Shown here: one piece after another, positions 16,054-54,700 of the stretch
Position numbering within the stretch: position 1 is the stretch's first letter
How the letters are laid out: each line of letters begins with the position of its first letter
Assembly: GCA_900547725.1 (NCBI GenBank)
Contig: URHR01000003.1
Location: 1 to 62,027, forward strand
Source of the DNA: an uncultured Eubacteriales bacterium
Lineage (GTDB): Bacteria > Bacillota > Clostridia > Oscillospirales > CAG-272
Direction: 5' to 3'
DNA: 62,027 bases
The notes under the pieces: generated by a model
Database searches by the model: none
What the model was told of the DNA's origin: nothing
Seen by the model: only the letters and a program-made list of their open reading frames with translations
Made by a program: the position numbers and the translations under genes

Positions 16054-16163
16054 ACAGGTAAAGCAAGCATGTATGACCGTAAAAAGTGCCCCGGCAACCG
16101 CAACCGGGTGTCTCTTGCGGACGGTCTGACGTCTTGCGAAAAAACATTCAAGGGTGGAGGGAC

Positions 16164-17862: not shown

Positions 17863-18003
17863 ATGAAAAAGCAATATTCGGCACCTGAGATGATCTGTCA
17901 CAACATGGAATGGACGGATATTCTGACCACTTCCCTCAATTCCCAAACATCCGGGGAGGGGAAATCCTACAACTTTAACGAATGGGGGATAACATCGTTA
18001 TGA
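17863..18003 (+). CDS. 46-aa micro-ORF (small acidic hypothetical protein), family member 1
   Basis: It is not in the ORF track (<60 aa). GGAGG lies 8 nt upstream of ATG 17863. The product is MKKQYSAPEMICHNMEWTDILTTSLNSQTSGEGKSYNFNEWGITSL. Its TGA (18001..18003) overlaps ATG 18000 of the next gene. A same-length, same-motif partner lies at 43453..43593. Confidence 0.55.
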   Translation: MKKQYSAPEMICHNMEWTDILTTSLNSQTSGEGKSYNFNEWGITSL

Positions 18004-39018: not shown

Positions 39019-40365
39019 ATGATCAAAGGAAGAATCGGAAGATGTCTTGCGTGGCTTCTGGCGGGGGTTGTCCTGCTGGCTTCCTGCAAACCGGGGCAGT
39101 CCGATTCCCCACAGGATACTTCGAAAGAAACGTCCGGGCAGACTCCGTCCGGGGCGCTTGAACTGATCCGGGACGGGAAGGCGGGCTGTGGCATCGTGCG
39201 GCAGACCGGTATCGGGAAGGATGCGATGACGCTGTGCTCGGAGCTGTTCGACGCCGTACAGGAGAAGACCGGTGCGGAGATCGGCTTTGTCAGCGACCGG
39301 AAGAGCTTGCAGGACGGTTGGGTCGAGATCCTGATCGGGGACACGAACCGCCCGGAGTCCGCACAGGCAAAGCAGGCGCTGGGAGACGATGCATATTCGG
39401 TTTCGGTCGTCAACCGGAAGCTGGTGCTGGTCGGCGCGGATGAACGGATGCTGGAGCATTGTTTGCGGTCGTTTCTGGATATGATTGCGCAAAATGCGGA
39501 AGCGCTCGGAATGGGACGCGGGTACTGGACCATGCCGCAGGATTTCAGCCGGCGTTTCGACAGCCCGGATGAAAGCTATAACGGACACATCGGAAGGGGA
39601 TATCCGCTCAGCTCCGTGTTTACCAGAATTCCGAAGCTGTGTGCAACCGGCGGAAGCTCCTCGGTCGGGGATTACCGCTTTCCGTGGGTGCAGGGCGGCT
39701 GTACGGACGGCACTTATTACTACGCTTTCATGATTACCGACAACTCCGTAGCGCCGACCAAATGTACGATCTTAAAGTATGAGCTTGCCTCGCAGAATCT
39801 GGTAAAGGTCAGCCGGGAGCTGGAACTGGGGCACGCCAACGATGCCGCATGGAATCCGGATCGGGGCGTGATTGCGGTGTGCGGCTCCGGAATGACCCAC
39901 TATCTGATCGATCCGGAGACTCTGACGGTGAAGGAAACCGTCCGGACTGACAATCCGGGCTACACCGTGGTCTATGACTCCGTGCAAAAGGAGTATCTGA
40001 TGGCAACCTCCACCGCAGTCTATGTCTATGACAGCGACTTCCGTCCGAAACGGCAGTTTGCCATTGAAGGATTCCTTTCGGCGTTTGACGCGGGCGGCAA
40101 GGCGGCAGGGCAGGGAATGACCTGCGACGACACTTATCTTTACTATCTGGAATATTGGCAGAATTCCGCAAACGGAAAGGACATCCGTTGCAATATTGCG
40201 GTCTACCGTCTGCGCACGGGCGCGTTTGTCCAAAGAATTCCGCTGGAGATGAAGCGCGAGGCGGAGAACATCTTCATTTGGAACAACAGCTTTTATGTGG
40301 TGTGCAACAACATCTCCTGGTCCGGCTCGGAATGCTTCCGGATCGATATTGTTCCGGAAGACTGA
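39019..40365 (+). CDS. Lipoprotein with one EILIGDT module and a C-terminal beta-rich domain
   Basis: ORF 38986..40365. I moved the start to ATG 39019 (AAAGGAGGG 8 nt upstream). The lipobox is LLASC. The segment VEILIGDTNRPESAQAKQAL matches the modules in 19502..21625. Confidence 0.6.
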   Translation: MIKGRIGRCLAWLLAGVVLLASCKPGQSDSPQDTSKETSGQTPSGALELIRDGKAGCGIVRQTGIGKDAMTLCSELFDAVQEKTGAEIGFVSDRKSLQDGWVEILIGDTNRPESAQAKQALGDDAYSVSVVNRKLVLVGADERMLEHCLRSFLDMIAQNAEALGMGRGYWTMPQDFSRRFDSPDESYNGHIGRGYPLSSVFTRIPKLCATGGSSSVGDYRFPWVQGGCTDGTYYYAFMITDNSVAPTKCTILKYELASQNLVKVSRELELGHANDAAWNPDRGVIAVCGSGMTHYLIDPETLTVKETVRTDNPGYTVVYDSVQKEYLMATSTAVYVYDSDFRPKRQFAIEGFLSAFDAGGKAAGQGMTCDDTYLYYLEYWQNSANGKDIRCNIAVYRLRTGAFVQRIPLEMKREAENIFIWNNSFYVVCNNISWSGSECFRIDIVPED

Positions 40366-40429
40366 AGCTCCGGGAGCAGGACTGCCCGAACGGGCGAACA
40401 ACCGATTGAAAAGAAAGGATCATTTCACG

Positions 40430-40468
40430 ATGAAAGCGATGAAAGCGATGAAAGCAATGAAAGTGATG
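40430..40468 (+). repeat. 9-bp tandem repeat encoding (MKA)3-MKV-M at a gene start
   Basis: ATGAAAGCG ATGAAAGCG ATGAAAGCA ATGAAAGTG ATG gives five in-frame ATGs. Confidence 0.9.
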
Positions 40469-41884
40469 CAAGCATGGCTTCTGATTCTTGTTTTTGTACT
40501 GCTGGCGGTTTTCCCCTCCTGCAAATCGAAGCCTGAGGGTGGGACGCCGACCGACTCCGGAACAGGGGAGAAAACGGAAATCATTGCGGACATTCCGCAG
40601 CGAGCCTACAATACCCATTTTACCATTCTCAATCCGAACAGAAAGCTGCTGGACACCTATTACTGGTGCGAGGACGAAAAAGCCGGAACATCGATTGACG
40701 CGGCAAACTACGGACGGGAGGCGGCAATTGAGGAGCACCTCGGCATTGAGATCTTCCATGAGCTTTACGAGCTGAAGGAGGGGACGCTGTATCGCCTGAT
40801 CGAACAGCAGAACCTGACCGGAACGGAGGCGTATCAGCTTTTCCTGACGCACTCCTTTCAGGATCTGGTCAGCATTGTGACAACCGACAGCGTGCAGGAT
40901 CTCTCACAGGTTTCCGGGGTCTCCCTGAATGAGGATTACTGGAACACGCAGATCATGGAGCAGGTGCGGTTTCAGGGGCATATGTTCCTCGGGAGCAGCT
41001 CGTTCATTCTCCATGAGCCGGTTGTCATGCTGTTCAACAAAAACATGGCGGGCGCACTGCTGAGCGACGGAGGTGCGGCACAGCTGTACGACCACGTGCG
41101 GGAGAAAACCTGGACCATCGAGCAGATGCAGACCTATGCAAAAATGGTTGATACCGGCATGAACAGCAGTCTTGCCAATAAAAAAGACGGGACTTACGGC
41201 TTTGCAACCCTGTTGGACTGGGAGCTTGCCTCCTTTGCGCAGGCAAACCATTATTTCCACGGCACGGTCACCGAAGAGGGCAGCGTAAAGCTGCAGGCAT
41301 TCAACGATGATATCTTCAAAATCTTTCAGAAGGTCGTCGGGCTGGTGGATCAGGAGTACACGTACAGCTGGAGATATTCCGACATCGGAACCGGCGCGGA
41401 GCTGAGCATCAGTACCGGGCGGGTGCTGTTTGCCACCAGCGGAACGCCGGACATGATTCCGCTGATGCTGGAGAGCGAAATTCCGATCGGCGTTCTGCCG
41501 TATCCGACAATCGAAGCGGGAATGAGCTATCAGAGTCTGGATTGGGCAGGATATTTTGCCGTTCCGCGGGCGATTGCCAACACGCAGATGAGCGGCGAGG
41601 TCGCGGAACTGCTCTCCTGGTACGGTGAGAATACGATCAAGAACGAATTCTACAACGTTCTGCTGGGACTCCGGGCAAGCAACGAACCGGAGGACCGCGA
41701 AATGCTGGCGCTGATCTTCGACAACCTGGTGGCTGACCCGGCTCTGCCCTATATGAATGAGGGCGCATCACCGGTTGCCTACATCTTCTATGTCATTTCC
41801 CGGATGCTCTCCAAAGGGGAGCGCGGAATGGCGGGCTGGTACGCACAGTATTACGACCCCGCACAGGCGGCACTGAAGTTTTGA
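40430..41884 (+). CDS. Extracellular solute-binding lipoprotein (paralog of 4962..6428)
   Basis: ORF 40295..41884. The start is at the first ATG of the repeat (GAAAGGA 10 nt upstream). The signal peptide ends in VFPSC. It resembles the first SBP (for example AIEEHLGIEI vs AVEERLGIKL). Confidence 0.68.
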   Translation: MKAMKAMKAMKVMQAWLLILVFVLLAVFPSCKSKPEGGTPTDSGTGEKTEIIADIPQRAYNTHFTILNPNRKLLDTYYWCEDEKAGTSIDAANYGREAAIEEHLGIEIFHELYELKEGTLYRLIEQQNLTGTEAYQLFLTHSFQDLVSIVTTDSVQDLSQVSGVSLNEDYWNTQIMEQVRFQGHMFLGSSSFILHEPVVMLFNKNMAGALLSDGGAAQLYDHVREKTWTIEQMQTYAKMVDTGMNSSLANKKDGTYGFATLLDWELASFAQANHYFHGTVTEEGSVKLQAFNDDIFKIFQKVVGLVDQEYTYSWRYSDIGTGAELSISTGRVLFATSGTPDMIPLMLESEIPIGVLPYPTIEAGMSYQSLDWAGYFAVPRAIANTQMSGEVAELLSWYGENTIKNEFYNVLLGLRASNEPEDREMLALIFDNLVADPALPYMNEGASPVAYIFYVISRMLSKGERGMAGWYAQYYDPAQAALKF

Positions 41885-41915: not shown

Positions 41916-41968
41916 AGGCATCACCGCGCAATTCCGACGGTGCAATCGCGAATTGCGCGGTAATGCCT
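41916..41968. repeat. Minimal copy of the MITE ends forming a 19-bp hairpin in the 5' leader of 41987
   Basis: AGGCATCACCGCGCAATTC, a 15-nt loop, and GAATTGCGCGGTAATGCCT (18/19 complementary). It is followed by AAAAAAAGGAGAAAACAC-ATG. Confidence 0.75.
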
Positions 41969-41986
41969 AAAAAAAGGAGAAAACAC

Positions 41987-43354
41987 ATGAAACACTTTCG
42001 TTTGCTCGCAGTCCTCGCAGCCCTTTGTATGCTTCTGACCCTTGCATCCTGCGCCACCCCGGACACACCGCCCACCGGAACATCGGGTACATCCGCAACG
42101 GAAACCCCGAACACCCCCACCAAGCCGAATCCGGAAGTCCCCACGTCCGTTCCGACCGGGGAGACCCCCAAGCCTGAGACCCCGACAACCGCCGGAGGAA
42201 ATGAAGGAGAGACTCCCAAGCCCCCGAAGTATGCGTGGGCAACGCAGGGCGGTGACGGAAGTGCGGATTCGCCGCTCATCATCAATCAGGAAAATTTCGT
42301 CGCGTTCTATAACTTCTATCTCCAGGGCGGCTGGAACTCCTTCGGAGATATCAAAGAGCATTTTGCGCTCGGCTCGGACATCGTTGTCAACACCGGAGAC
42401 GCGAAGACATGGGGAACTGCAGCTCCGCAGACTGTGTTTGAAAGATCCATGTGCGCGTTTAACGGACAGCTTGACGGAAAAGGGCACAGCATTTCGGGAC
42501 TGTGCATCAAGGTGTCTAATGCAACCAAAGACGACCGTGCCGCACTGTTCCATCAGATCAATAAGGGTTCGACCGTCAAAAATCTCGGCATTGTCAATTC
42601 TTATATCGAATTGAAATCGGGAGACTTCGGCTATGTCACCAGCGGCACGTTTGCCGGACGGCTGCTCGGAAACATCGAAGGCTGTTACAGCGACGCGGTT
42701 GTGGTCGGCATCGGCGGCACACCGAAAACCAACACCCTGGGCGGCATTGTGGGAATGGTGAATGAAAACGGTGTCACCGTCAAGGGCTGCGTGTTTGCCG
42801 GCTCGGTGACCTCCGAAAACGCGGGAGCAGGCGGAATTGTCGGAAAGATCAATGGCGGAAAGACCGGTGTTGTGATTTCGGACTGCCTCAACCTCGGCGA
42901 TGTGAAAACCGGATTTACCCGTTCGGGCGGTATCCTTGGGGAAAACTCCAACAATGACGATCCGGCAAACAAGATCATCAACTGCATCAATCTTTCGAAA
43001 AACATTGTCAGCGCGGCAACCGCTGAGGGCGGAAAGGCCGGCGGAGAGATTTACGGCGACAACTATGCCAGCATCCGCAAGCTGACAGTCAATACCTATA
43101 TCATCTCCGATGTCCGCGTGTCCGGCGGGACGGTTGCAAACGGCGTGACGCTGGATGAGAACGGTGCGGTTGTGAACGATGAAAAGAACGTCGGCTGGAC
43201 ATTTAAGATCGTTACGCTGAAAGCCTTCCTTGCCGGCGGAGAGAATATGCCGGAGGGGTGGTTTACCGCCGAAGGCTGTCTGCCCTGCCCGATTGAAGGA
43301 CTCCGCATCGAGCTTGCTCCCTACCTCGCGCTCTGGGGCGTGACGCTTGCCTGA
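41987..43354 (+). CDS. GLUG-repeat lipoprotein, paralog 3 (Pro/Thr-rich N-terminal linker)
   Basis: ORF 41963..43354. I moved the start to ATG 41987 (AAGGAGA upstream). The lipobox is LTLASC. FNGQLDGKGHSISGL and GGIVG...C repeats are present. Confidence 0.7.
   Translation: MKHFRLLAVLAALCMLLTLASCATPDTPPTGTSGTSATETPNTPTKPNPEVPTSVPTGETPKPETPTTAGGNEGETPKPPKYAWATQGGDGSADSPLIINQENFVAFYNFYLQGGWNSFGDIKEHFALGSDIVVNTGDAKTWGTAAPQTVFERSMCAFNGQLDGKGHSISGLCIKVSNATKDDRAALFHQINKGSTVKNLGIVNSYIELKSGDFGYVTSGTFAGRLLGNIEGCYSDAVVVGIGGTPKTNTLGGIVGMVNENGVTVKGCVFAGSVTSENAGAGGIVGKINGGKTGVVISDCLNLGDVKTGFTRSGGILGENSNNDDPANKIINCINLSKNIVSAATAEGGKAGGEIYGDNYASIRKLTVNTYIISDVRVSGGTVANGVTLDENGAVVNDEKNVGWTFKIVTLKAFLAGGENMPEGWFTAEGCLPCPIEGLRIELAPYLALWGVTLA
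42636..43246 (+). repeat. 611-bp segment identical to 44584..45194
   Basis: I compared the two stretches line by line and found no mismatch at a constant offset of 1948. The flanking 150 bp are similar but diverged, with a 12-nt indel. The ORF track shows identical antisense ORFs at 42685..43005 and 44633..44953. Confidence 0.9.
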
Positions 43355-43392: not shown

Positions 43393-43430
43393 GATACCGC
43401 CGCCCGATTCTGTATCCGGGCGGCGGTATC
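43393..43430 (+). other. GC-rich 14-bp perfect stem-loop between GLUG paralog 3 and the micro-ORF
   Basis: GATACCGCCGCCCG, a 10-nt loop, and CGGGCGGCGGTATC. No T-run follows. Confidence 0.8.
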
Positions 43431-43452
43431 GGAATAAAGAAAGGAGATTTGC

Positions 43453-43593
43453 ATGATGAAAAGCAGTTTTTACACCTCGCCGGAGATGCTTCTGATAGGG
43501 ACGGATGCCGACGATGTCATCCGCACCTCCGGGATACAGGCAGTCGAAAATGACGGGATTTCTGCAGTGCCGGGCATCCCGTGGAAATCCTGA
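43453..43593 (+). CDS. 46-aa micro-ORF (small acidic hypothetical protein), family member 2
   Basis: It is not in the ORF track. AGGAG lies 6 nt upstream. The product is MMKSSFYTSPEMLLIGTDADDVIRTSGIQAVENDGISAVPGIPWKS. Its stop is 23 nt before ATG 43617. It has the same length, position and motif as 17863..18003. Confidence 0.55.
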   Translation: MMKSSFYTSPEMLLIGTDADDVIRTSGIQAVENDGISAVPGIPWKS

Positions 43594-43616
43594 TCGGAAG
43601 GAGGGGCGGAAAAGAC

Positions 43617-45302
43617 ATGAAGAAATTTGTATGTTTGCTGTTGGTGACGGTACTGCTTCTTGCCGCAACGGCGGCGATCCCTGTGTCCGGTGAAGAAGCG
43701 GAGGAAGCCGCCTTTACCGCACCGGTATTTTTCGGCGTGCAGACCGCACCCGGAGACGGGGAGAACACACAGCATATCCGCTTCATCTCGGTTGCTCCGA
43801 ATGCCGTCGGAACTGCGTTCGGATATGAGATTACCGCACAGTATACGGAAAACGGCGCTCTTCGGACGGTGCGTTACAGTGCCGCCGACGGGGACGCCGT
43901 GCTTGAGGGCAACACGGTGTATCGCTCCGTTCTGACCGGGGCATATCAGGCGGAAGGGACACGGGTTACGGCGCAGGAGCTGGGAAGTCAGTTGACCCCG
44001 CCGATTCCGAACCCGTTCGGTCTGTTTGCCCTGTCGATTCAAAATGTGCCGACGAACATCGGGAACATTACGTTCTGGGTTCGTACTTACGTAAAAAACG
44101 GCGATGCGGTCATGGACAAATCGGGCGCGACCGGGGTTTCGGTGACAAACGGAACGGTTTCCGAAACTGCGGCTGCCCCGGCGTATCCTTGGGTGACGCA
44201 GGGCGGCGACGGGTCTGCCGCCTATCCCTTTGTTCTCAACGGTAAAAATTTCAGAGCGTTTTATTACTACTATTCCAATTGTACCGGCGGCGCGAAGAAC
44301 GGCTTTGCGGCAAACCGTCACTTTGCGTTGGAGAGCGACATTGTCCTGAACGCGGGGGATGCAAAAGCCTGGGGGACGGATGCGCCCGCGCTGGTCTTTG
44401 ACAAATCGATGAACGCATTCAACGGTGTACTCGACGGCAGAGGGCACAGCATTTCGGGACTGTGCATCAAGGTGTCCGGTGACCGTGCCGCACTGTTCCA
44501 TCAGATCAATAAGGGATCGACCGTCAAAAATCTCGGCATTGTCAACTCTTATATCGAACTGAATGCGGGAAGTGCGGGCTATATCACCAGCGGCACGTTT
44601 GCCGGACGGCTGCTCGGAAACATCGAAGGCTGTTACAGCGACGCGGTTGTGGTCGGCATCGGCGGCACACCGAAAACCAACACCCTGGGCGGCATTGTGG
44701 GAATGGTGAATGAAAACGGTGTCACCGTCAAGGGCTGCGTGTTTGCCGGCTCGGTGACCTCCGAAAACGCGGGAGCAGGCGGAATTGTCGGAAAGATCAA
44801 TGGCGGAAAGACCGGTGTTGTGATTTCGGACTGCCTCAACCTCGGCGATGTGAAAACCGGATTTACCCGTTCGGGCGGTATCCTTGGGGAAAACTCCAAC
44901 AATGACGATCCGGCAAACAAGATCATCAACTGCATCAATCTTTCGAAAAACATTGTCAGCGCGGCAACCGCTGAGGGCGGAAAGGCCGGCGGAGAGATTT
45001 ACGGCGACAACTATGCCAGCATCCGCAAGCTGACAGTCAATACCTATATCATCTCCGATGTCCGCGTGTCCGGCGGGACGGTTGCAAACGGCGTGACGCT
45101 GGATGAGAACGGTGCGGTTGTGAACGATGAAAAGAACGTCGGCTGGACATTTAAGATCGTTACGCTGAAAGCCTTCCTTGCCGGCGGAGAGAATGCACCG
45201 GAGGGGTGGAGCTACAGGGAAGGCTGTCTGCCATGCCCGATCGACTGGCTGGATATTGACCTTGCCCCCTATCTGGCCGCATGGGAAATTTCGGGTATCT
45301 GA
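43617..45302 (+). CDS. Secreted GLUG-repeat protein, paralog 4 (extra N-terminal beta-rich domain)
   Basis: ORF 43581..45302. I moved the start to ATG 43617 (MKKFVCLLLVTVLLLAATAAIPVSGEE signal peptide). FNGVLDGRGHSISGL is present. The C-terminal two-thirds are near-identical to paralog 3. Confidence 0.7.
   Translation: MKKFVCLLLVTVLLLAATAAIPVSGEEAEEAAFTAPVFFGVQTAPGDGENTQHIRFISVAPNAVGTAFGYEITAQYTENGALRTVRYSAADGDAVLEGNTVYRSVLTGAYQAEGTRVTAQELGSQLTPPIPNPFGLFALSIQNVPTNIGNITFWVRTYVKNGDAVMDKSGATGVSVTNGTVSETAAAPAYPWVTQGGDGSAAYPFVLNGKNFRAFYYYYSNCTGGAKNGFAANRHFALESDIVLNAGDAKAWGTDAPALVFDKSMNAFNGVLDGRGHSISGLCIKVSGDRAALFHQINKGSTVKNLGIVNSYIELNAGSAGYITSGTFAGRLLGNIEGCYSDAVVVGIGGTPKTNTLGGIVGMVNENGVTVKGCVFAGSVTSENAGAGGIVGKINGGKTGVVISDCLNLGDVKTGFTRSGGILGENSNNDDPANKIINCINLSKNIVSAATAEGGKAGGEIYGDNYASIRKLTVNTYIISDVRVSGGTVANGVTLDENGAVVNDEKNVGWTFKIVTLKAFLAGGENAPEGWSYREGCLPCPIDWLDIDLAPYLAAWEISGI
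44584..45194 (+). repeat. 611-bp segment identical to 42636..43246
   Basis: See the partner entry. Confidence 0.9.
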
Positions 45303-45305
45303 GGC

Positions 45306-46277
45306 ATGACGATGGATCAAATTTCGGAGAACAACCGGTTTCCGGACGGTGCAACGGTCTGCTTCATCGGGGACAGCATCACCTGGAACAATCTGTTCCT
45401 TGCCCATATTGCGGCATATTATCGCTCCCGGTTTCCGGAATCCGGCGTAGCCTTTTACAACTGCGGGATTGCCGGGGCGGGACTGAAGACCCTGCTGGCG
45501 GCGTTTGATACGGATGTCAGACCGCTTTGCCCGACGCACTGCGTTCTGCTGATCGGCGCGAATGATTCGCATCTGCAGAGCGGGTGCGGGGAGGATCGCG
45601 AGGCGTGGTATTCCATGCTGGAGCGGTCCTTCGGGCGATTCCGGAGACAGCTTTCGGAGTACTGCGGGCGAATCCGGGAGATCGGTGCGGAGCTGATCCT
45701 CTGCACACAGCTTCCCTATGCGGAATATCAGGAAAGCACCGTGCCGCCGCATCGGGCGGGTGCGGCGGTGATGCTGGGGTATGCGGATTTTACGCGGGAT
45801 TATGCAAGGGAAAACGGCTATCCTTTGTGCGATTATCATTCGTATTTCGCCCGCGCCATGCAGAAGGAGGTTCTGTTTGAAGCGGATCGGGTGCATCCGA
45901 ATCCGCAGGGGCAGTACCGGATTGCCGACTGCTTTCTTGCCTTTCAGCACTGCAGTCCGGGCGCTCCGCAGGCTTTGCCGGAGGATGTGGAGGCGTGGCA
46001 CCGCACGGTGCGTGTATTGCGGGACATGGTTACGGCGGAGCATTTCATTCTTGAGGATCGGTTTGACATCCCGGAGGAGCAACGGGTGGCGGCAATGAAA
46101 CGGTATCTCTCTGCGGATCACTCCAAGGAGGCGGATTCCGCCCTGCCTGTGAGGCTTGCAGAGCAATATCTGACGGAACAGCCGGGGAGACAGAACAGAA
46201 TCCGCTCGGTCACGGACTTTATGACCAAAAAGCCAACGGTATCCGGGGAGAGCGAACCCGCACGCGCCGATTTCTGA
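45306..46277 (+). CDS. SGNH/GDSL-family hydrolase
   Basis: 323 aa. FIGDSITWNN, CGIAGAG, LIGANDS and DRVHPNPQG blocks are present. The start may instead be the ATG at 45312. Confidence 0.75.
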   Translation: MTMDQISENNRFPDGATVCFIGDSITWNNLFLAHIAAYYRSRFPESGVAFYNCGIAGAGLKTLLAAFDTDVRPLCPTHCVLLIGANDSHLQSGCGEDREAWYSMLERSFGRFRRQLSEYCGRIREIGAELILCTQLPYAEYQESTVPPHRAGAAVMLGYADFTRDYARENGYPLCDYHSYFARAMQKEVLFEADRVHPNPQGQYRIADCFLAFQHCSPGAPQALPEDVEAWHRTVRVLRDMVTAEHFILEDRFDIPEEQRVAAMKRYLSADHSKEADSALPVRLAEQYLTEQPGRQNRIRSVTDFMTKKPTVSGESEPARADF

Positions 46278-46385
46278 TTCTGCGGAACACCGCAGGGAAA
46301 TCCGGTCGTTCTGCGGGAATTTCCCGAACCGGACATCGGGGAAAAACGGAACAAACGGAGTCATAAAAGAAAGGAAGATTGATTG

Positions 46386-48170
46386 ATGACATATCCGAAA
46401 ATCGGTATCCGTCCCGTAATTGACGGAAGATGGGGCGGGATTCGGGAATCTCTCGAAGCGCAGACGATGAATATGGCGCGCAACGCCGCAAAGCTCATCA
46501 CGGAGACGCTGCGCTATCCGGACGGCTCGCCCGTGCAATGCGTCATCAGCAAAACCACCATCGGTGGCGGCGCTGAGGCTGCCGCGTGCGAGGAACAGTT
46601 CTCCCTCGAAAATGTCGTTGCCACGTTGTCCGTTACGCCCTGCTGGTGCTACGGAACAGAAACCTTTGACATGAACCCCAACACCGTCAAAGCAATCTGG
46701 GGGTTCAACGGAACGGAACGCCCGGGGGCGGTCTACCTTGCCGCCGTTCTTGCCGCACACGCGCAAAGAGGCTTGCCCGCATTTGCAATTTACGGTCAGG
46801 ACGTGCAGGATATCGGGGATAGCGGAATCACACCGGATGTCAAAGCAAAAATCCTTCGCTTTGCAAAATGTGCCGTCGCAGTCGGATGGATGAAAAATAA
46901 ATCCTATGTCAATATCGGCGGCGTAACGATGGGTATCATGGGGAGCTTTTGCGATGCCGATTTGCTGCAAAAATACTTCGGTATCCGCGCGGAATGGGTT
47001 TCCATGGTGGAAATTCTGCGCCGCATGAAACTGGAAATCTATGATCACGGGGAATATGAAAAAGCCCGCGCATGGGTCAGGGAAAACTGCCGCGAGGGAT
47101 ACGACTGCAATGCGGGGGTGACCCTGCCGAAAATCGTAACCGATTCCAAGGTCATTCCGCCCGACTCGGATTGGGATTTCGTTACGCGCATGACGATGAT
47201 CGTGCGGGATATTCTGTTCGGCAACGCGAAGCTGGATGACATGGGATGGCATGAGGAAGCGCTCGGAAAGAACGCGATTGCCGGCGGATTCCAGGGACAG
47301 CGGCAATGGACAGACTGGCTTCCGAACGGAGACTTTACCGAAACGCTGATGGCGTCAACCTTTGACTGGAACGGCGCGAAAGCCCCGACCGCATTTGCAA
47401 CCGAAAACGATACGCTCAACGGTCTGGCGATGCTGCTTGGTACTTTGGTGTCGGATACCGCGCCCTGTTTCCATGATGTGAGAACCTACTGGAGTCCGGA
47501 AGCCTGCGAGCGCGTGACCGGTAAAAAGCCGACCGGAAAAGCCGGGAACGGATTCATCCACCTGGTCAACAGCGGCGCTACCGCAATGGACGGTTGCGGT
47601 CAGGTCAGAAACGCGCAGGGAGAGAACTGCATGAAGCCGTTCTGGGATATGACCGAGGAGGATATCAGGGCTTGTACGGACGCAACGGACTGGTGTCGCG
47701 CCAACTATCAGTATTTCCGCGGCGGCGGATTTTCCGCACATTTTCTGAAGCACGCGGAAATGCCGTTGACGATGGTTCGGGTCAATATCGTTGAGGGACT
47801 TGGACCGGTGATTCAGATTGCGGAAGGCTACAGCGTTGTCCTGCCGAAAGACATGGACGAAAAAATCGACAACCGCACCGACCGCAGCTGGCCGACCGTT
47901 TGGTTTGCGCCGAACCTGACCGGAGAGGGTGCGTTCCGGGATGTCTACAGCGTGATGGCAAATTGGGGCGCAAACCACGGCGCGACGGTTTACGGTCATG
48001 TCGGGGCAGAGCTTGTAACGCTTGCTTCCATGCTCCGCATTCCCGTAACGATGCACAATGTGGCAAAGGAGAACATCTTCCGTCCGCACGCATGGGCTGC
48101 ATTCGGAACGGAAAGCGCCGAAAGCGCCGACTACCGCGCGTGCCGTCAGTACGGACCGTTGTATCGATAA
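46386..48170 (+). CDS. fucI: L-fucose isomerase
   Basis: ORF 46383..48170 with an ATG at 46386. It appears collinear with E. coli FucI as I recall it (PKIGIRPVIDGR, WGFNGTERPGAVYLAA, FQGQRQWTD, DVRTYWSPEA, VMANWGANHG, YRACRQYGPLY). Confidence 0.93.
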   Translation: MTYPKIGIRPVIDGRWGGIRESLEAQTMNMARNAAKLITETLRYPDGSPVQCVISKTTIGGGAEAAACEEQFSLENVVATLSVTPCWCYGTETFDMNPNTVKAIWGFNGTERPGAVYLAAVLAAHAQRGLPAFAIYGQDVQDIGDSGITPDVKAKILRFAKCAVAVGWMKNKSYVNIGGVTMGIMGSFCDADLLQKYFGIRAEWVSMVEILRRMKLEIYDHGEYEKARAWVRENCREGYDCNAGVTLPKIVTDSKVIPPDSDWDFVTRMTMIVRDILFGNAKLDDMGWHEEALGKNAIAGGFQGQRQWTDWLPNGDFTETLMASTFDWNGAKAPTAFATENDTLNGLAMLLGTLVSDTAPCFHDVRTYWSPEACERVTGKKPTGKAGNGFIHLVNSGATAMDGCGQVRNAQGENCMKPFWDMTEEDIRACTDATDWCRANYQYFRGGGFSAHFLKHAEMPLTMVRVNIVEGLGPVIQIAEGYSVVLPKDMDEKIDNRTDRSWPTVWFAPNLTGEGAFRDVYSVMANWGANHGATVYGHVGAELVTLASMLRIPVTMHNVAKENIFRPHAWAAFGTESAESADYRACRQYGPLYR

Positions 48171-48728: not shown

Positions 48729-51700
48729 ATGGAAATCAGAGTCAAAAAGACCGTTATCATCATTCTCGTTGCGGCGCTTGCCGTTCTGGCGGCTGTCGGA
48801 ACCGTCATTGGCATCGTGGTGTCACGGCGCGGACAGAACCCGACCGTTACCGTTACCGTTACCTTTGTGACGAACGGCGGAAAGGAGATTGCCCCGGTTA
48901 CGTTGCAGAAAGGGGAGACGCTGACGCTCCCGACAGCGGAAAAAGACGGCAGAGTCTTTGCGGACTGGTATTACGACGGGGAATTTGCGCAAGTCTGTCC
49001 TACGGAAATCACCGTGGAAAAGGACGAAACGCTTTACGCCCGCTACGGAGCGGTTTTAACTTTTGTAACCAATGGCGGAACGGAAATCGAGCCGCGAACC
49101 TACTTCGAAGGCGAAGAAATAGGAACTCTTCCTGTATCGTATAAGGATGATTTTTCTTTCGGCGGTTGGTATTATGACGCAGAATACAGCCAGAACGTCG
49201 GCAAAAAAGACACGATAGAATATGCTCTGACGGTATATGCAAGATTTTCGGAAAAATCCGAAACGATAAGAAAACTGACGAGTGTAAAAAACGTTTCCTT
49301 ATCTCCGGCCGTCAAAGTAAAGACCGACGGTATTGTTTTGCATAATGAAAACATATCGGATTACATCTCTTTCGTTTCTTTGAGCGGAGAAACAATAGAC
49401 CTCATCTGCCGCCCGTCGGAAAACGGGGCTTTTATCGTCGAACCCAACAAAAATCTTTCGGAGGGGATGACGTACTCTGCAAGGACTTTATCTTCTTTGC
49501 TGAAATTTGTCGCCGTTGACGGAAACGACACGGAGAGCGCAGACGAAGTAACCATAACCACGCATAAAGAAGAAAAAGAAGTTATCGAGAAAAAAACGTC
49601 TGTTCATCTCACTTCAGCCGAACTTGCCGGATGGGAAGAAAACGTTTACGTTTATATGGACGCAGGACTTGAAAAGAACGTGAACAGAATTGTGGCGAGA
49701 ACGGAAAAAGAACTGAAAGTCGGCTCGATCGTAACCGTCGGCGAAAAAACGACGGCACAAGACACCGATTATATTTGCAAAGTGATCTCCGCCGGAAAGG
49801 AGAGGATGCAATATGTTGTCGGTTCGGATATTAAAGAAGATGAATTTTATGTGTTGGACGTTGTTACTCCCAACGTAGATGACGTTTATATCGATATCGA
49901 TATATACGGAGAAAAGCAGGCACAGCTTGAAGGTGTGATAAAAATTTCTGCGGAAACGATTGCGGAAAACGTGGAAAAGAACGAAGGGATCGTGATGCTT
50001 AAAAGCGCAGTCAGAAACGCCATCGCGCAGTCGCCTACGATAACCAACTACACAAACGCTCTTTCCGAGGCGGAAAAAGCGGCGGTTGTTGCGGCAATCG
50101 CAGGTTTTGAATTTCAAAAGCCGAAAGTAAAAATAGATATAACGGGAACGGTGCTTGCTTTCGGGATCGAGCTTGGCGGTGAAATCCGGGTGAAAAACTT
50201 CAAAGTGGGCGTTTCCGTTACGATAAAAAACAGAACGCAGGTGGATTATCGGTACACGATTTGCAAGTCCGGACTTGTCACGCTGAATCCGCTGTTATGG
50301 TTCTATACCGATATTCAGGTCGACCTTGCAAACGATTTTTCGATTTCACTTGCCGCAACCGTGGAATTTGCGGACGCCAAGGACGACATTCACGGGATCA
50401 TTGACATTACCGACGAAGTGGAATACGTGATGGACATCGCCAAGGACGGACAAAACAAGTTTGCCGAAGCGATCACAGGCAGCCCTCTGTGGGATGACAG
50501 CGAACTTGAATACGTTGATATTTTCAGCATACCGTTGGGGCAGATTCCGCTGCCGGTTCCGGTTGTGTCGCTTATGATGGAGTTTAACGTAGTAGGTTCT
50601 TTGGGCGCGCGGGCAGGACTGTACGTCGAATTTTCTCATCATTACGTTGAAACGACGACCCTTACGAACGGAGAAAGCGCGGACGGCAACAACGGCAAAC
50701 CCGTGATGCACAAGGAGTTCAGGTTTCTGAGAAACACGTCCGCAAACGAAATCGAGCTTTCCGTTACCCTGAAGGGGCAGGTCGGTTTCCGTTGCGGACT
50801 CGAAGCGAAACTGTCTTTGTCGGTGTTGAAACTCAACAATGTTGCCTCGGTATACGTTTCCTTCCGTTTCGGACCTTATATCGAACTCAGCGGACTCGTC
50901 AACTTCCGTTATTCTTACGATGCCGTAAACAAGATTTCCGAAACGCACCTTTACGGCGGAATGTATCTGGAGGTCGGCTTGTTCGTCAACGCGAAAATCG
51001 GGGCGAAATTCCTTGTTTACGACGTCAATACGGACATTTTCGATAAAAAAATTCCTCTGTACGGCGTAGGCGACAGACTCATTCCGTTAGGGTTCGTCGA
51101 AAAACAAAATTCGCCGGACAATCCGTATGTTATCGTGTCGCGCTACGGTGGAGTGAGAATGAACAGCGTGCAGATGAAATATCTCGATATCGTCACAGGC
51201 GAGGAGGTCGTGGACAATGCGCTCAGAAACAGATACGGGGCGCAGCTGTGGTACGAATTCGAACTTGTCGATGCGCCGGATTATCAGACGAAAAACCATT
51301 CCGACTATGTAACGATGAACGCCGGCACATTTTCCGTCAGCAAAAAATATCCGTATAAAACGCTTCACTTTGTTGTGAAAGCGAAAATGCTTCAGCGGCA
51401 CGGCGTGTATGCAAGCGGAATCGAACGGATTTTCTATGTGGAATACCGAAATCCGGACGGCAGAGATTACGCAACTCAATACAGCGAATTTATCAACGAG
51501 TATTACGTCGGCGGCGGTTCGAGACACTCGGAAGTATTGGCAAGGCTTGCATTCCGGGAAGGGGAACAAGTCTCTCCTCCCGATTTTACGGCGGAAACGT
51601 TGCCGATTCGTCAAGGATATTATCTTGACATGAATGACCTTTGGGAAAAATACTATCCGTTTTTGGACAACCGGGTAGACAGCGAATTCGACGGAACGTT

Positions 51701-54700
51701 CCCCGTGGTAACATACGAAAACGCAAATATGCTCTTCAAGGGCTACATGATCGTACACACCTGCTACTACAGACTGAAATGGAAACAGGTTACCTATACA
51801 GCCGATTTCTACTATCCGCAGTATTCGTCCGCCGATGTCGTATCCGAAAACAAATTCCTGAAATCGGCGCAAATGCTGTATGTTCCGTCGCTTCGCTCGT
51901 TTATCGTACTGACGGACAAAATAACCGCGCCGGACATTTACGGGAAAAAGTATGACGCTTTCGTGAGTACGAGCGGATTGCGCTTCACGGTCGACTACTT
52001 CAATGTAGATCCTGACAGTGATTTGTTTGCAGGTTTCGATATGGAAGCGGGGCTGTATCCGATCATTCGGGTGGATACCGATTCCGATTTGTATCGCAAC
52101 GACTTCGACATCATCAGAAACGGCGCGACGTTTGTCGCAACGTATACGGACGCAAATGTGTTTACCGAAACCTACGTTCTGGAAACGGAAACGTTCGGGC
52201 GCGTCAAAGTCGAATACAAGCCGTTCGGTTATAACGGCAAAACCATTCGTCCTTCGCCTCCCGCAGGGCTGGGAATCGGCGACGAGTTTGAGCAAAACGG
52301 AAATACCTACGTCATCACGGGGTATCGCGATATCAATCCCGCAGACGAGGCAAACAGCCGTTACTACAGCGTTGCCGATATGCCAGATGTTACGAAAAAC
52401 AGAATTTATTACGTGCTGTACGAACGCAAGGGCTTGAGCGAACTGCCGGTATATTATGTCAATATCGTCGCGAACGGACAAAAAATCGGCGATTACGGCG
52501 TAAAACAAGGCGAGCCGATCAATGTTGCGTTGCTGAAACTCAATTTTTCGGACAAAACGGTTATCAGCAGGCTTGCAGGCTATCCGCTCATGACGTTGGA
52601 TGAAACAATAAAAACCTATTCGGTCGTCTGGGACGAGGCGAATATCCCTGCGCAGATGCCCGAGGGAGACATCACCGTAAATCTGACGGCAACGTATACG
52701 TTTAACGAGCTTACCGCCGAATTTATCGTAAGCAATCCGCTTCAACGTTTTGCCGGCGGAGTGCGTTTTGAGACAAAACCGGACGGAAACAAAGTGTATA
52801 CGGCAAAAGGCAAGGCTTGGATTTTCGGCTCGGGTGACGAAACGGCATTTTATTCGCTCCCGAAGCTCAACGATTATTTTGATTCCGACGGCAAAAAATA
52901 TTATGCGTTTTACGGTTGGAAGAACGCAGGCGGAGAGGAATATCCTTACGGAATCCGCATGGCGTTTGTCAAAAACGAGGTTTATACGCCGATATTCTCG
53001 GAAAAAACGGTATTGCCGACGATTGCGTTTGTCAGCGTCGGTGACTACGGCTATGAATATTACTACAAAATAGCCGAGGGCGATTTCTTTGGCAAAACGC
53101 TTGCGGAGGTCATACAATCCGAAAAAATCGCTCCCCCTGTCCGCGGCGACGCAACCGGCATTTACGAATATCGGTTCAGGGATTGGGGGATCGATGAAAC
53201 CTCCTACGTTGTCGGTTCCGAAAAGGACGGGGACGGCAACGTAAAAACCTACATCGTGTTCAAAGCGCGGTTTAACGAAACATACAAACGGCACACGATA
53301 ACGTTCGAGGCTTTGGGCGGAGCGTTTCCGGGAGGAGAAAAAACGCTTAAAAAGGTTGGTGTTTACGGCGAGGATATATCCTCTGTCATTGCCGGGAATT
53401 ACTCCGATGAAAAAGGCGATTTTGCATTTATTTGTTGGACGACGGTTCCGTATTCTCTTGACCATAAGGTGGACAAAGAGGATTTGAAAATCGGCAACAA
53501 AGATGCAACGTATTACGCATACTATTCGCTTTCTCCCGCCACGGTTACGCTCACCTTCAAAGGGCGCGTTCAAACGGAAGAATCCGACGGCACCGGCAAT
53601 GTTTACTTCGGCGGAGACAAAACGAAAACCGAACTCAAAGTCAGCGATTTGTACGGCAGGGGTTACTATCTGACGGCGGGCGAATTTGCGGTTGACAGCA
53701 AGTCCAAAACTTTCGTTCCCGATTATCTGAAGTGGACGGTGGACGGCGAAGAACTGCGGTCTGCGTTTTATAACGACGGGTATATGGCGTATATCCCTTT
53801 CGACAGCAATGCAACGGTAGAAATCGTTTTTAAGCCTGCCACACCGAAAATCGTCAATCTTGCATTCGTCTCTGACGGAAAATGTTTCGAGCCGGACGGC
53901 ACGATCATAGACGGCGTGATTTGCAACGGTTCTATGAGCGGGTTCAGGCACGTAGCGAATTATTATGAGGCTTACGGCTCGACCATGACTGCGCCCAACG
54001 TGGATTATTACAGCGAAAACTACTATCGCTTCGACCGTTGGGAAGCAAAGACGTCGGACGGGAATTCGGTTATTTCCGTTCGGGCGGGCGATACGATAAC
54101 CTTTACCGAGGATCTCGTTTTCTACGGCGTTTACGTCCACGATACGTCGGTAAAAGTTGAACTTACTTTCCGCGCCGATGCATCTTACGGCAGTTCGGAA
54201 GGGAACGGTGACCTCGTGGGATTAAAGGTGTTTGACGACGGCAGCGTGGAAATCAAAGACTATGGCACGGCAGGCGAAAAAATCGCGTTTGATAAAATTC
54301 CGTCCTGCAAAGGTATGAAATTCGTCGGGTGGAGAACGAACGACAGCGATGAGATCATTACGCCAAGCAAACTCAAAGAGACGGTTTATTCGGCAAAAAC
54401 GACTTATTATGCGGTTTACGAACCCGATGCCGAAGTTTATAAAGTCGTTTTGAATGCGGGCGACGGAAAATTCGCAGACGGAACAACCGAAAAAGAGGTT
54501 GATCGCGTCCCGTTCGGCAGACTGACGAAAGAACTTGAAAAACCTGCGCCGAATGCGTCCGGACTTGTTTTCAGCCACTACGAAAACGAAAGCGGCTACC
54601 CCGTAACCGTTATCGAAAAAGGGGAGACGCTTTATGCCCGGTATGCAAAGCCTGTTTCGACGTTTGAGGATCTGCTGAATATTAATCTTGCACCCGAGCA

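Follow-up and report, generated by a model that had tools for sequence, protein, structure and literature searches.

pepB, a 46-codon gene between GLUG-type protein genes, belongs to a large unannotated peptide family of Clostridia and may encode the precursor of an exported peptide

Closest described systems

The Firmicutes lasso peptide systems with tailoring enzymes, such as those of paeninodin (PadeA/B1/K/D) and of pseudomycoidin with its nucleotidyltransferase, are close described counterparts of the peptide family analysed here. [quoted passage not shown] In Firmicutes lasso peptides, enzymes of these types phosphorylate and glycosylate this residue. The family shares with these systems a short precursor with a leader of the form MKK.[YW]..P.[LM] and Thr close to the cleavage site, a small leader binder of the PqqD type as a separate protein, and a single operon with the genes for an HPr-kinase-like enzyme, a nucleotidyltransferase and an ABC exporter. 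In contrast, the family cassette has neither a cyclase nor a transglutaminase-type B2 peptidase and carries an S26 signal-peptidase-like protein instead. Furthermore, the leaders of the family are longer and end in ED[IV]ITTS, the tails in many cases lack the length needed for a lasso peptide, and the precursor genes are dispersed over the genome, where each adjoins a surface-protein gene.

A second group comprises the HPr-kinase-related cassettes of Haft (TIGR04352, HprK_rel_A; TIGR04249, ScmC, SynChlorMet), in which a distant HPr-kinase-like P-loop protein is likewise accompanied by a PqqD protein and a PF14907 nucleotidyltransferase. The composition of these cassettes as a set is known from the TIGRFAMs descriptions. 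However, the matches of the family to these models are below their cut-offs, as the best ScmC match has an E-value of 1.1e-8 and one member scored about 22 bits against a cut-off of 125. The family cassette also lacks a radical SAM partner, and the libraries searched define no precursor peptide for the Haft systems.

The peptidase of the family cassette, p144, resembles the signal peptidases of the SipW/Sec11 type (S26B). It has an invariant G.SM.P motif (with the Ser), an invariant His within VLHR and an invariant GDN motif and aligns to signal peptidase I and SEC11A/C. For S26 peptidases, the -1/-3 rule is established, and the invariant Ser at the end of the conserved peptide head, with a usually small residue at -3, fits this rule. 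Unlike these enzymes, p144 comprises only about 144 AA without an N-terminal membrane anchor, and the matches of its profile to the PDB are weak (signal peptidase I, E=0.0015; SEC11A, E=0.013). Cleavage of the peptides by p144 is an inference.

Finally, the double-glycine bacteriocins and pheromones exported by ABC transporters in Gram-positive bacteria also combine an acidic non-Sec leader and a short hypervariable mature part with an ABC exporter of their own. The family differs from them in the absence of a GG/GA cleavage motif and in a cassette with PqqD, kinase-like and nucleotidyltransferase proteins. In addition, no ABC model with a C39 peptidase domain was among the best matches of the family exporter (Pfam excluded).

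The pepB gene and its family

The gene pepB is located at 43453..43593 (including the stop codon) on the forward strand of the window, which is the whole stretch of 62,027 nucleotides of DNA that was analysed. Its reading frame extends from the ATG at 43453 to the TGA at 43591-43593, and the 46-AA product is exactly MMKSSFYTSPEMLLIGTDADDVIRTSGIQAVENDGISAVPGIPWKS. A Shine-Dalgarno sequence, AGGAG (43442-43446), lies 6 nt 5' of the start codon, and the stop codon is separated by 23 nt from the next ATG at 43617. The product consists of a conserved head, the putative leader (residues 1-26, MMKSSFYTSPEMLLIGTDADDVIRTS, encoded at 43453..43530), and a variable tail, the putative core (residues 27-46, GIQAVENDGISAVPGIPWKS, encoded at 43531..43590). 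The last residue of the head is the Ser that is invariant in the family. No signal peptide is present in pepB, and Arg, not a small residue, is found at -3 from the proposed cleavage site. A sister member, pepA, was identified on the same strand at 17863..18003 by its translation and by an independent HMM.

Membership in a family was assessed with an HMM built from 127 peptides on contigs of other, unrelated genomes, without any sequence from the window. Applied to the 840 ORFs of at least 20 AA in the window, it matched pepA (E=3.3e-8) and pepB (E=1.9e-7) alone, and the next-best ORF had an E-value of 4.1. A six-frame scan for Y..PE[ML]...D[IV][IL].TS likewise returned solely these two sites. 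Beyond the window, a HMMER search of the full library found 74 clusters (50 % identity) at E<1e-3, all of them peptides of 32-60 AA that matched over their first ~27 residues, and a word-indexed profile search added 489 further family proteins. A scan with a DNA pattern revealed at least 128 peptide ORFs, in 112 of 120 matches. A back-translated contig search based on the alignment of pepA and pepB returned 17 pattern matches, none of which was confirmed; this pattern was too specific for the subfamily of the window.

Members of the family number in the hundreds and come from Ruminococcus, Oscillospiraceae, Lachnospiraceae and their relatives among the Clostridia of gut and rumen. Cultured carriers include R. 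flavefaciens, Roseburia sp. AM59-24XD, Eubacterium album, Porcipelethomonas ammoniilytica and Kandleria vitulina. Close homologs of pepB (89-96 % identity) form five clusters with conserved synteny and differ mainly within the tail, and 17 clusters with 78-98 % identity were found for pepA.

The head of about 25 residues follows MKK.Y..PEM-x8-D[IV]I.T-S. In the family alignment, S26 is invariant, and Y7, P10 and D21 are kept in at least 90 % of the members. The spacing of 11 residues between Pro and Asp was found in all 18 diverse members compared, as was a GGAG-type Shine-Dalgarno sequence at the same position. The third codon position is about twice as variable as the others in these 18 members (entropy of 1.29 vs 0.68 for the first and 0.48 for the second), and the invariant Ser is encoded by TCN as well as AGY codons across the family. 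The tails are 6-42 residues long (median 15 AA), hypervariable, acidic and rich in G/D/P/E/T, with Gly and Pro prominent, and identical heads are joined to hypervariable tails. The family therefore meets the criterion of a conserved leader and a hypervariable core that applies to RRE-dependent RiPP precursors, while modification and removal of the leader are inferred. The features of the family are all found in pepB, namely P10 and D21 at a distance of 11 residues, S26 at the end of the head, the Shine-Dalgarno sequence, a length of 46 AA within the range of 30-60 AA and a gene for a large secreted protein upstream.

A chance ORF in an intergenic spacer was considered as an alternative. The ORF is short, GC-rich DNA yields many spurious ORFs, and the dN/dS among close relatives is near 0.7 (0.67 for pepB, 0.5-1.0 for pepA, compared with 0.17-0.47 for the flanking genes, based on just 6-14 substitutions). 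These values indicate that recent constraint is weak or that selection is diversifying. Nevertheless, the E-value of the family HMM, the codon-position pattern, the two Ser codon families, the Shine-Dalgarno sequence in all members examined and the hundreds of relatives refute this explanation. pepB is a real protein-coding gene and a member of a large unannotated peptide family, as established from sequence without expression data.

These results also bear on the preliminary description of the locus. The translation of pepB, its ribosome-binding site and its distance to the next start codon were confirmed by re-reading the sequence. The claim that loci A and B share a motif held as well, and so did the proposal of a real family under purifying selection on a short motif rather than a recent copy, which is supported by the relatives, the fixed spacing, the codon-position bias and the dual Ser codons. 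The absence of further members in related genomes, together with a lack of evidence for expression, had been named as a refutation, and further members clearly exist.

No model for the family was found in the Pfam and NCBIfam libraries searched, the source records give it no name, and the literature searched does not describe it. When pepA and pepB were searched against Pfam and NCBIfam, a weak lasso_cyano match for pepA was the only result. Hundreds to thousands of such peptide genes in the dominant Clostridia of gut and rumen, among them Ruminococcus, Roseburia, Lachnospiraceae and Oscillospiraceae, therefore seem to be overlooked in functional annotation. The bacteria carrying them matter for fibre degradation and host interaction.

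Neighbouring genes and the cassette

Both peptide genes are flanked by genes for GLUG-type proteins on the same strand. At locus A, paralog 1 (16086..17849), a secreted protein, ends 13 nt before the start of pepA, and paralog 2 (18000..19499), which has a C-terminal membrane anchor, overlaps the stop codon of pepA with its start (ATGA). At locus B, paralog 3 (41963..43354), a secreted lipoprotein with the lipobox LTLASC, occupies the upstream position typical for the partners in the family, and paralog 4 (43617..45302), a secreted protein with a signal peptide, follows pepB. The distance of 98 nt between paralog 3 and pepB is among the longest in the family (median 18 nt). Paralogs 3 and 4 are 75 % identical to each other, which confirms the earlier placement of pepB between two paralogs, and each shares about 30 % identity with the pair flanking pepA.

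These four paralogs are homologous to proteins encoded upstream of family peptides in other genomes (E-values from 1e-7 to 1e-32). One such homolog (L015, 4512-7985) matches Glug with 9.1e-19. None of the four paralogs had a Pfam match at E<=0.01, and the gathering score of Glug (PF07581) was not reached. PDB sequence searches with the paralogs gave no match either. An AlphaFold model of the protein encoded at 43617..45302, based on an alignment of four sequences, had a mean pLDDT of 50, with a moderately confident, beta-rich region at residues ~235-450. A Foldseek search of the PDB with this model returned nothing at E<0.3, and the long insignificant matches were parallel beta-helix proteins. 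A C-terminal module, SY.Y...KALY.Y, which occurs on many upstream partner proteins, is not present in the window.

Across the family, the conserved partner is the upstream gene. For 71 of 95 evaluable peptides, an ORF on the same strand with a length of 300 AA or more ends between -10 and 150 nt upstream, with the median gap given above, and in the first set of loci a GLUG homolog ended 13-17 nt, and up to 98 nt, upstream of the peptide. The partner types comprise BspA-type LRR, DUF285, Flg_new (Listeria-Bacteroides repeat), transglutaminase and GLUG proteins. The gene downstream is usually not conserved, and paralog 4 is a neighbour specific to the window. The preliminary description had noted that the signal peptides encoded by both downstream genes end in [LI]PVSGE[DE]. 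This observation is correct (AVLPVSGED and AAIPVSGEE), but it reflects the paralogy of the two genes and failed as a feature of the family. A downstream gene of this kind was rejected as the family partner, as most family loci have none. The search for further instances and invariant neighbours that had been suggested thus yielded a larger family whose usual neighbour is an upstream gene for a large secreted protein.

The second recurrent neighbour is a cassette of five genes, which encode an HPr-kinase-like protein, a PqqD peptide-binding protein, the S26 signal-peptidase-like p144, an ABC exporter and a PF14907 nucleotidyltransferase. The order in the operon is surface protein, peptide, p174, in some cases another peptide, kinase-like protein, PqqD, p144, ABC exporter and nucleotidyltransferase. 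At least one cassette marker was found within 4 kb downstream of 22 of 66 evaluable peptides, i.e. about one third, leaving about two thirds without. Conversely, 22 of 66 kinase-anchored loci have a family peptide within 2.5 kb upstream; with a first, narrower kinase query, all three loci had one directly upstream of the kinase gene. The link between peptide and cassette is therefore frequent, but not obligatory. Of 24 kinase-like proteins, 23 matched ScmC and 14 matched HPr(Ser) kinase, with no match reaching the curated cut-offs, and the kinase profile reached HPr kinase in the PDB at E=0.74 at best. Since these matches and those of p144 are sub-threshold or weak, the kinase-like and peptidase identities are only possible.

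No cassette gene was found in the 62-kb window. The best 80 kinase loci include none from the closest assembly found, the MAG HGM12690 (CAAGDE01). Peptide and cassette are located on different contigs in seven genomes.

An alternative reading of these neighbourhoods is that the peptide is an unmodified small partner protein. Here, the head itself would be functional, for example by binding or assisting the co-transcribed surface protein, and the cassette would be incidental or relevant for a subset only. The upstream surface-protein gene as the commonest and closely spaced neighbour supports this, as does the absence of a cassette near about two thirds of the members and from the entire window. 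However, the combination of a hyperconserved head and a hypervariable tail is the signature of a leader and a core, and many genomes have peptides directly before the operon of kinase, PqqD, peptidase and ABC exporter. Moreover, the peptide has no signal peptide while the partner is secreted, so that both would be in separate compartments unless the peptide is exported. This reading is therefore considered unlikely.

Proposed maturation and competing readings

The explanation that we favour, with moderate confidence, is that pepB encodes the precursor of an exported, modified peptide that is matured in trans by a cassette located elsewhere in the genome. It is inferred from gene neighbourhoods in other genomes; there are no data on expression, modification or export, and a cassette has not been shown for this organism. 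In the proposed pathway, the head would serve as a leader bound by the small PqqD-type peptide-recognition protein, and the peptide would be tailored by the HPr-kinase-like protein and the PF14907 nucleotidyltransferase. The soluble Sec11/SipW-like S26 peptidase would then cut after the invariant Ser and remove the head, and the ABC transporter would export the tail. Co-localisation with PqqD and the modifying enzymes applies to about one third of the family members. Since no cassette lies within the 62 kb, maturation of pepA and pepB would have to take place in trans, with both as 'orphan' precursors. This is plausible because of the seven genomes with peptide and cassette on separate contigs. 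The attachment of the peptide gene to the 3' end of a surface-protein gene suggests that the peptide is probably produced together with this protein and that both may act together outside the cell.

If this reading is correct, the family would represent a new class of ribosomal peptides that combines the tailoring half of the Firmicutes lasso pathways, namely kinase, nucleotidyltransferase, PqqD and exporter, with a signal-peptidase-like leader protease and dispenses with the lasso fold. A single cassette would serve many dispersed precursors, and the pairing with adhesin-like surface proteins (GLUG, BspA-LRR, Listeria-Bacteroides repeat) would point to an unrecognised layer of cell-surface biology. 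As cultured carriers exist, the precursor hypothesis is directly testable.

A competing possibility is that pepB is the precursor of a lasso peptide. In this case, the leader would end in T-S and the core would start with GIQAVEND, forming a macrolactam ring between Gly1 and Asp8 with Trp18 as the plug, and the cyclase would be encoded elsewhere in the genome. For pepA, the ring would be formed by Leu1 and Glu8. pepB fits the sequence rules of lasso precursors (T25-S26, G1...D8, W18), and the core of pepA would begin with Leu. Further support comes from the head, which is similar to lasso leaders (aromatic-x-x-P-x-hydrophobic, with Thr at -2), from weak sub-threshold matches to lasso_cyano in 10 of 67 members and to the paeninodin family in two of 67, and from the conservation of G1 and D8 in all pepB variants and of E8 in all pepA variants. 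In addition, the cassette PqqD (Pfam, 2.6e-14) is closest to lasso B1 chaperones (2.5e-8), and the same types of kinase and nucleotidyltransferase occur in Firmicutes lasso clusters. Nevertheless, no lasso cyclase (Asn-synthetase-like) or transglutaminase-type B2 peptidase was found in the window or in any of the compact family cassettes inspected. Many tails are too short with 6-12 AA, Gly is the first residue in just 32 %, and about half of tails this acidic would carry an acidic residue at positions 7-9 by chance alone. Since every lasso model also scored far below its cut-off, this possibility is very unlikely.

A bolder reading concerns the function of the tail, which might be neither an antibiotic nor a pheromone, but a copy of a C-terminal docking epitope that is exported in free form. 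The cassette-bearing genomes encode p174, a membrane-tethered and intrinsically disordered protein that shows the same motif at its extreme C-terminus (IELPFVPAx, 34 of 38), and p174 and the local tails vary in parallel, the exceptions IDWF, GGAGNED and LP[ED]D included. Within the window, the best match to the last eight residues of pepA among 163 ORFs was to the C-terminal ends of both GLUG proteins at locus B. If true, each large surface protein gene would have its own small ligand gene, and these Clostridia would have a peptide system to dock, release or regulate surface proteins. Such a system would parallel cohesin-dockerin or sortase anchoring, but with a soluble peptide as the ligand, which would be decorated by the kinase and nucleotidyltransferase cassette. 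We regard this reading as unlikely.

The last alternative is that pepB is a regulatory upstream ORF, i.e. a leader or arrest peptide that controls 43617..45302, perhaps together with a hairpin. The short distance of 23 nt to the secreted-protein gene, the overlap of pepA with the next start codon and the presence of a strong hairpin 5' of pepB are in line with this. Against it, the conserved partner is located upstream and there is usually no conserved downstream gene. Arrest peptides keep their critical residues near the C-terminal end. The family shows the opposite, with amino-acid conservation over 25 residues of the head and a variable C-terminus. The hairpin is missing at locus A and at most other family loci, and no Rfam family was found in the whole window, which makes a regulatory role very improbable.

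The hairpin itself, a perfect 14-bp stem reported at 43393..43430 in the preliminary description, was confirmed as a structure. It lies on the forward strand between the upstream gene and pepB and is GC-rich, with arms at 43393-43406 and 43417-43430 and a 10-nt loop. It was rejected as an intrinsic terminator because it has no U-tract, and a terminator scan did not call it. The 106-nt region around it folds with -42.5 kcal/mol (z = -3.8 vs shuffles), and in the relative L005 a single A-to-G change in the hairpin keeps the pairing as G-U.

The locus B peptide gene and its family

The 46-codon micro-ORF of locus B (pepB) extends on the + strand from ATG 43453 to TGA 43591-43593 and encodes MMKSSFYTSPEMLLIGTDADDVIRTSGIQAVENDGISAVPGIPWKS. 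A Shine-Dalgarno sequence, AGGAG (43442-43446, + strand), is located 6 nt ahead of its ATG, and 23 nt separate its stop from ATG 43617. On its 5' side lies a perfect GC-rich hairpin, in which 43393-43406 pairs with 43417-43430 to form a 14-bp stem with a 10-nt loop. In a six-frame scan of the window, the motif Y..PE[ML]...D[IV][IL].TS was found only in pepB and in the sister micro-ORF of locus A (pepA, 17863..18003, + strand). All of these elements, namely the ORF, the AGGAG, the stop spacing, the hairpin and the motif, had been reported in the preliminary description and are confirmed.

Close relatives with conserved synteny were found for both peptides, in 5 clusters with 89-96% identity for pepB and 17 clusters with 78-98% identity for pepA. 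Searching 1.84 billion representative proteins with a pepA+pepB profile (HMMER) yielded 74 clusters with E<1e-3. Nearly all of them are peptides of 32-60 aa aligned along the first ~27 residues; they share the consensus MKK.Y..PEMEIIEFE.EDVITTS, after which the tails are unrelated. A profile built from 67 family peptides detected 489 further proteins in a word-indexed search; among these no Pfam domain or informative name was found, the sole source name being 'hypothetical protein'. Scanning species-level genomes with the back-translated pattern PEM-x8-D[IV]IT[TA]S returned at least 120 stretches, and 112 of these 120 contained a total of 128 true peptide ORFs. The carriers include Ruminococcus (with R. 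flavefaciens isolates), Oscillospiraceae, Lachnospiraceae, Roseburia, Eubacterium album, Porcipelethomonas, Acutalibacteraceae and Ruminiclostridium. A membership HMM, built exclusively from 127 peptides of other genomes and applied to the 840 window ORFs of at least 20 aa, recovered pepA (E=3.3e-8) and pepB (E=1.9e-7) and no others, the next-best ORF having an E-value of 4.1.

The coding signal was assessed in 18 diverse members. All of them keep a Pro-to-Asp spacing of 11 residues and possess a GGAG-type ribosome-binding site. The entropy in the conserved blocks is 0.68, 0.48 and 1.29 at codon positions 1, 2 and 3, respectively, and four codons, TCC, TCA, AGC and AGT, are used for the invariant Ser. 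Hence pepB is a real gene and a member of this very large peptide family, which supports the reading of the preliminary description; the sole correction to that reading concerns the typical neighbour, which is the upstream gene. The alternative of a chance ORF is refuted. Among close relatives, dN/dS is 0.67 for pepB and 0.5-1.0 for pepA, compared to 0.17-0.47 for the flanking genes, with few substitutions available. Such fast recent evolution accords with a diversifying tail and leaves the deep conservation of the N-terminal part unchallenged. No family model, name or paper for these peptides was found in the libraries and literature searched, which did not cover subscription literature.

Coupling to surface-protein genes and the two loci

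Attention had originally been on the downstream gene; family-wide, however, the usual neighbour lies upstream. In the loci examined first, the peptide gene is preceded at 13-17 nt, sometimes 54-98 nt, by the end of a gene for a homolog of the GLUG-type proteins of the window. In a larger set, 71 of 95 evaluable peptides have an ORF of 300 aa or more on the same strand whose end lies between -10 and 150 nt upstream, with a median gap of 18 nt. These partners are large adhesin-like proteins, 39 out of 69 having a hydrophobic N-terminal signal-type segment. The 57 scanned for domains contained BspA-type LRR_5 (15), LRR_8 (10), DUF285 (7) and InlB-type repeats (7), and others carry transglutaminase, Big_2 or SLH domains. 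Many share the C-terminal motif S..SY.Y..L....L.N..KALY.Y..AA..Y, for example L065 4848..8000 and L130 888..3416 from the loci L035-L154 of other genomes. It occurs on N-terminal domains as different as LRR_5, GLUG and transglutaminase, could be assigned to no Pfam family, and is absent from the window proteins, in which it was sought. Coupling to surface-protein genes is shown, for pepB as for the family.

A regulatory uORF acting on the downstream gene is very unlikely, even more so than a lasso precursor. The conserved partner gene is located upstream, what is conserved in the N-terminal part is the amino-acid sequence, and the hairpin belongs to locus B alone, locus A having no equivalent. 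The hairpin region has a folding energy of -42.5 kcal/mol (z = -3.8). No U-tract follows the stem of 43393..43430, and it was not called by the terminator scan. In the relative L005, a single A to G change in the stem keeps the pairing as G-U. The hairpin, located between the upstream GLUG gene and pepB, is conserved in relatives and very stable. Instead of terminating transcription, it could possibly stabilise the 3' end of an mRNA or mark a processing site.

In both loci the micro-ORF lies between two genes for large secreted proteins. The paralogs at locus A (16086..17849 and 18000..19499) are 52% identical and those at locus B (41963..43354 and 43617..45302) 75%, while the flanking genes share ~30% identity between the loci. 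Since pepA and pepB, with 28% identity, are about as diverged as these neighbours, an old duplication of the whole unit of peptide and flanking genes fits the data and is a possible origin. Both loci are also present in the closest public assembly, the human-gut MAG 'Clostridia bacterium HGM12690'. The remaining window encodes sugar catabolism (GH20, GH4, uxaC, KDPG aldolase, kinases, GH30, fucosidase and fucose isomerase), AraC and RpiR regulators and dnaN. Peptide-modifying enzymes are missing from it, be it an Asn synthetase, a PqqD protein, a transglutaminase-type peptidase or a radical SAM enzyme, and an Rfam search of the window found no family.

Head, tail and the associated cassette

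pepB has a head and tail architecture. Family heads comprise ~25 acidic residues without Sec-type features and end with an invariant Ser. The tails have a median length of 15 aa (range 6-42), are rich in G, D, P, E and T, contain 0.7% Cys and start with Gly in 32% of members. Within a genus, identical heads are combined with very different tails (N[DE]LP..GI..P, ETPFVP... or a Trp near the end). pepA and pepB are divergent members with long, Trp-containing tails of 22 and 20 aa, respectively.

About one third of the members directly precede a compact, overlapping operon, hereafter the cassette. Its order is surface protein, peptide, p174 and a second peptide (in some loci), followed by an HPr-kinase-like protein, PqqD, p144, an ABC exporter and a PF14907 nucleotidyltransferase. 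The PqqD protein has a clear Pfam match (2.6e-14), its nearest relatives being lasso B1 chaperones, under their cut-off. The kinase-like proteins matched TIGR04249 (ScmC) in 23 of 24 cases (best E-value 1.1e-8) and HPr(Ser) kinase in 14 of 24, all under the cut-off. The S26 signal-peptidase-like p144 has the invariant motifs G.SM.P, His and GDN, and its profile aligned with signal peptidase I (E=0.0015) and human SEC11A/C (E=0.013), the catalytic Ser and His being in register. Species-level genomes contain at least 596 homologs of the kinase-like protein. A family peptide lies just upstream in all three loci of a narrow kinase query (A4), and within 2.5 kb upstream in 22 of the 66 evaluable among the best 80 loci of a broad kinase scan. 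Family members are thus frequently adjacent to the cassette. In seven genomes, the peptide locus and the cassette locus are on separate contigs. Because one cassette with dispersed precursors is a common arrangement, the 'orphan' state of the window peptides is unremarkable. The cassette is very widespread (loci L155-L234), being present in Clostridia, in Kandleria vitulina and in a few MAGs labelled Bacteroidales, Alistipes or Atopobiaceae, for which mis-binned contigs are possible.

A lasso precursor is very unlikely. The core rules are satisfied in pepB (G1-D8 ring, W18), and E8 is present in pepA, but acidic residues are so common that D/E at positions 7-9 is uninformative, many family tails are too short, and the cyclase and B2 are missing from the family cassettes. 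No family member had a curated-threshold match in the profile libraries. Matches to NCBIfam models far under the cut-off (lasso_cyano in 10 of 67 members, the paeninodin family in 2 of 67) reflect the aromatic-x-x-Pro start common to family heads and lasso leaders, of which rumen Firmicutes examples are given in Table 3 of PMC7533575. The system is most similar to that half of Firmicutes lasso pathways which carries out tailoring and export, to which it adds a putative leader protease of the signal-peptidase type. A search for the defining cyclase, in the window and in the cassettes inspected, gave none, and for this reason it is not a lasso system. A further resemblance is to Haft's HprK-related cassettes with PqqD and PF14907, a comparison based on sub-threshold matches. 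To our knowledge, no substrate has been defined for those cassettes. The family system would be a kind of RRE-dependent ribosomal peptide system, unusual in its genome-dispersed precursors, each paired with a surface-protein gene.

The reading favoured, moderately and by inference only, is pepB as an orphan precursor of an exported, modified peptide. The head would be a leader bound by the PqqD protein. By analogy, the HPr-kinase-like protein and the nucleotidyltransferase may decorate the peptide; in the paeninodin and pseudomycoidin pathways, enzymes of these types modify the linear precursor at its C-terminal Ser, first by phosphorylation and then by glycosylation (PMC8498205). p144 would cut off the head after the invariant Ser, and the ABC transporter would export the tail. 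Family heads carry a small residue at -1, and in most cases one at -3 as well, in agreement with the known S26 rule. A simple transfer of this model to pepB is weakened because its C-terminal Ser is not conserved in close homologs and its position -3 is Arg. An unmodified small partner of the surface protein is a less likely explanation than this precursor, but it cannot be excluded because two thirds of the members have no cassette nearby.

Tail similarities and further observations

p174 has a membrane anchor at the N-terminus and a long disordered linker rich in acidic residues and lysine, and in 34 of 38 cases it terminates in IELPFVPAx. It occurs at L013-L021, L028-L030 and ~25 of L035-L154 (e.g. 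L015 8217..8822, L065 4228..4695). Neighbouring peptide tails mimic this C-terminus and co-vary with it within each locus, as for GELPFVPAE and IELPFVPAF (peptide and p174, L052), ...EPIELPLVPLR and ...KPIELPLVPLR (L142), ...EIDWF and ...LPIDWFEE (L108), and ...GGAGNED and ...GGAGTED (L057); at L047 the similarity covers ~20 residues. For the last eight residues of pepA (NEWGITSL, 17980..18000), the best C-terminally anchored matches are the ends of both locus B GLUG proteins, ALWGVTLA and AAWEISGI (43331..43351 and 45279..45299), at ranks 1 and 2 of 163 window ORFs of at least 100 aa (shuffle p ~0.017). In all three, Trp is exactly six residues from the end. No such match was found for pepB among the window ORFs. 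These sequence similarities alone suggest that the tail may be a recognition epitope, presented by a membrane-tethered protein and also released in free form, a tentative reading that remains unlikely.

A ~100-residue region with the motif F.GVQ...LRF, likely a beta-sandwich domain, forms the C-terminus of 16086..17849 and the N-terminus of 43617..45302, and adjoins the peptide gene on opposite sides, before pepA and after pepB. Anchoring differs among the GLUG-type paralogs: the C-terminus of 18000..19499 is a hydrophobic helix with KKRNR after it, and 41963..43354 carries the lipobox LTLASC. A 2380-aa ORF (48729..55871) includes a GLUG-like region (jackhmmer E=2.6e-10). The 1278-aa antisense ORF 43470..47306 (- strand) was rejected as a gene; it overlaps three real + strand genes and is a shadow ORF typical for GC-rich DNA. 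The signal peptide of ORF 40295..41884 opens with MKA-MKA-MKA-MKV, encoded by a 9-nt tandem repeat at 40428..40473 (~5 copies of CGATGAAAG). As each repeat unit contains an in-frame ATG, this N-terminus may vary in length or have alternative starts.
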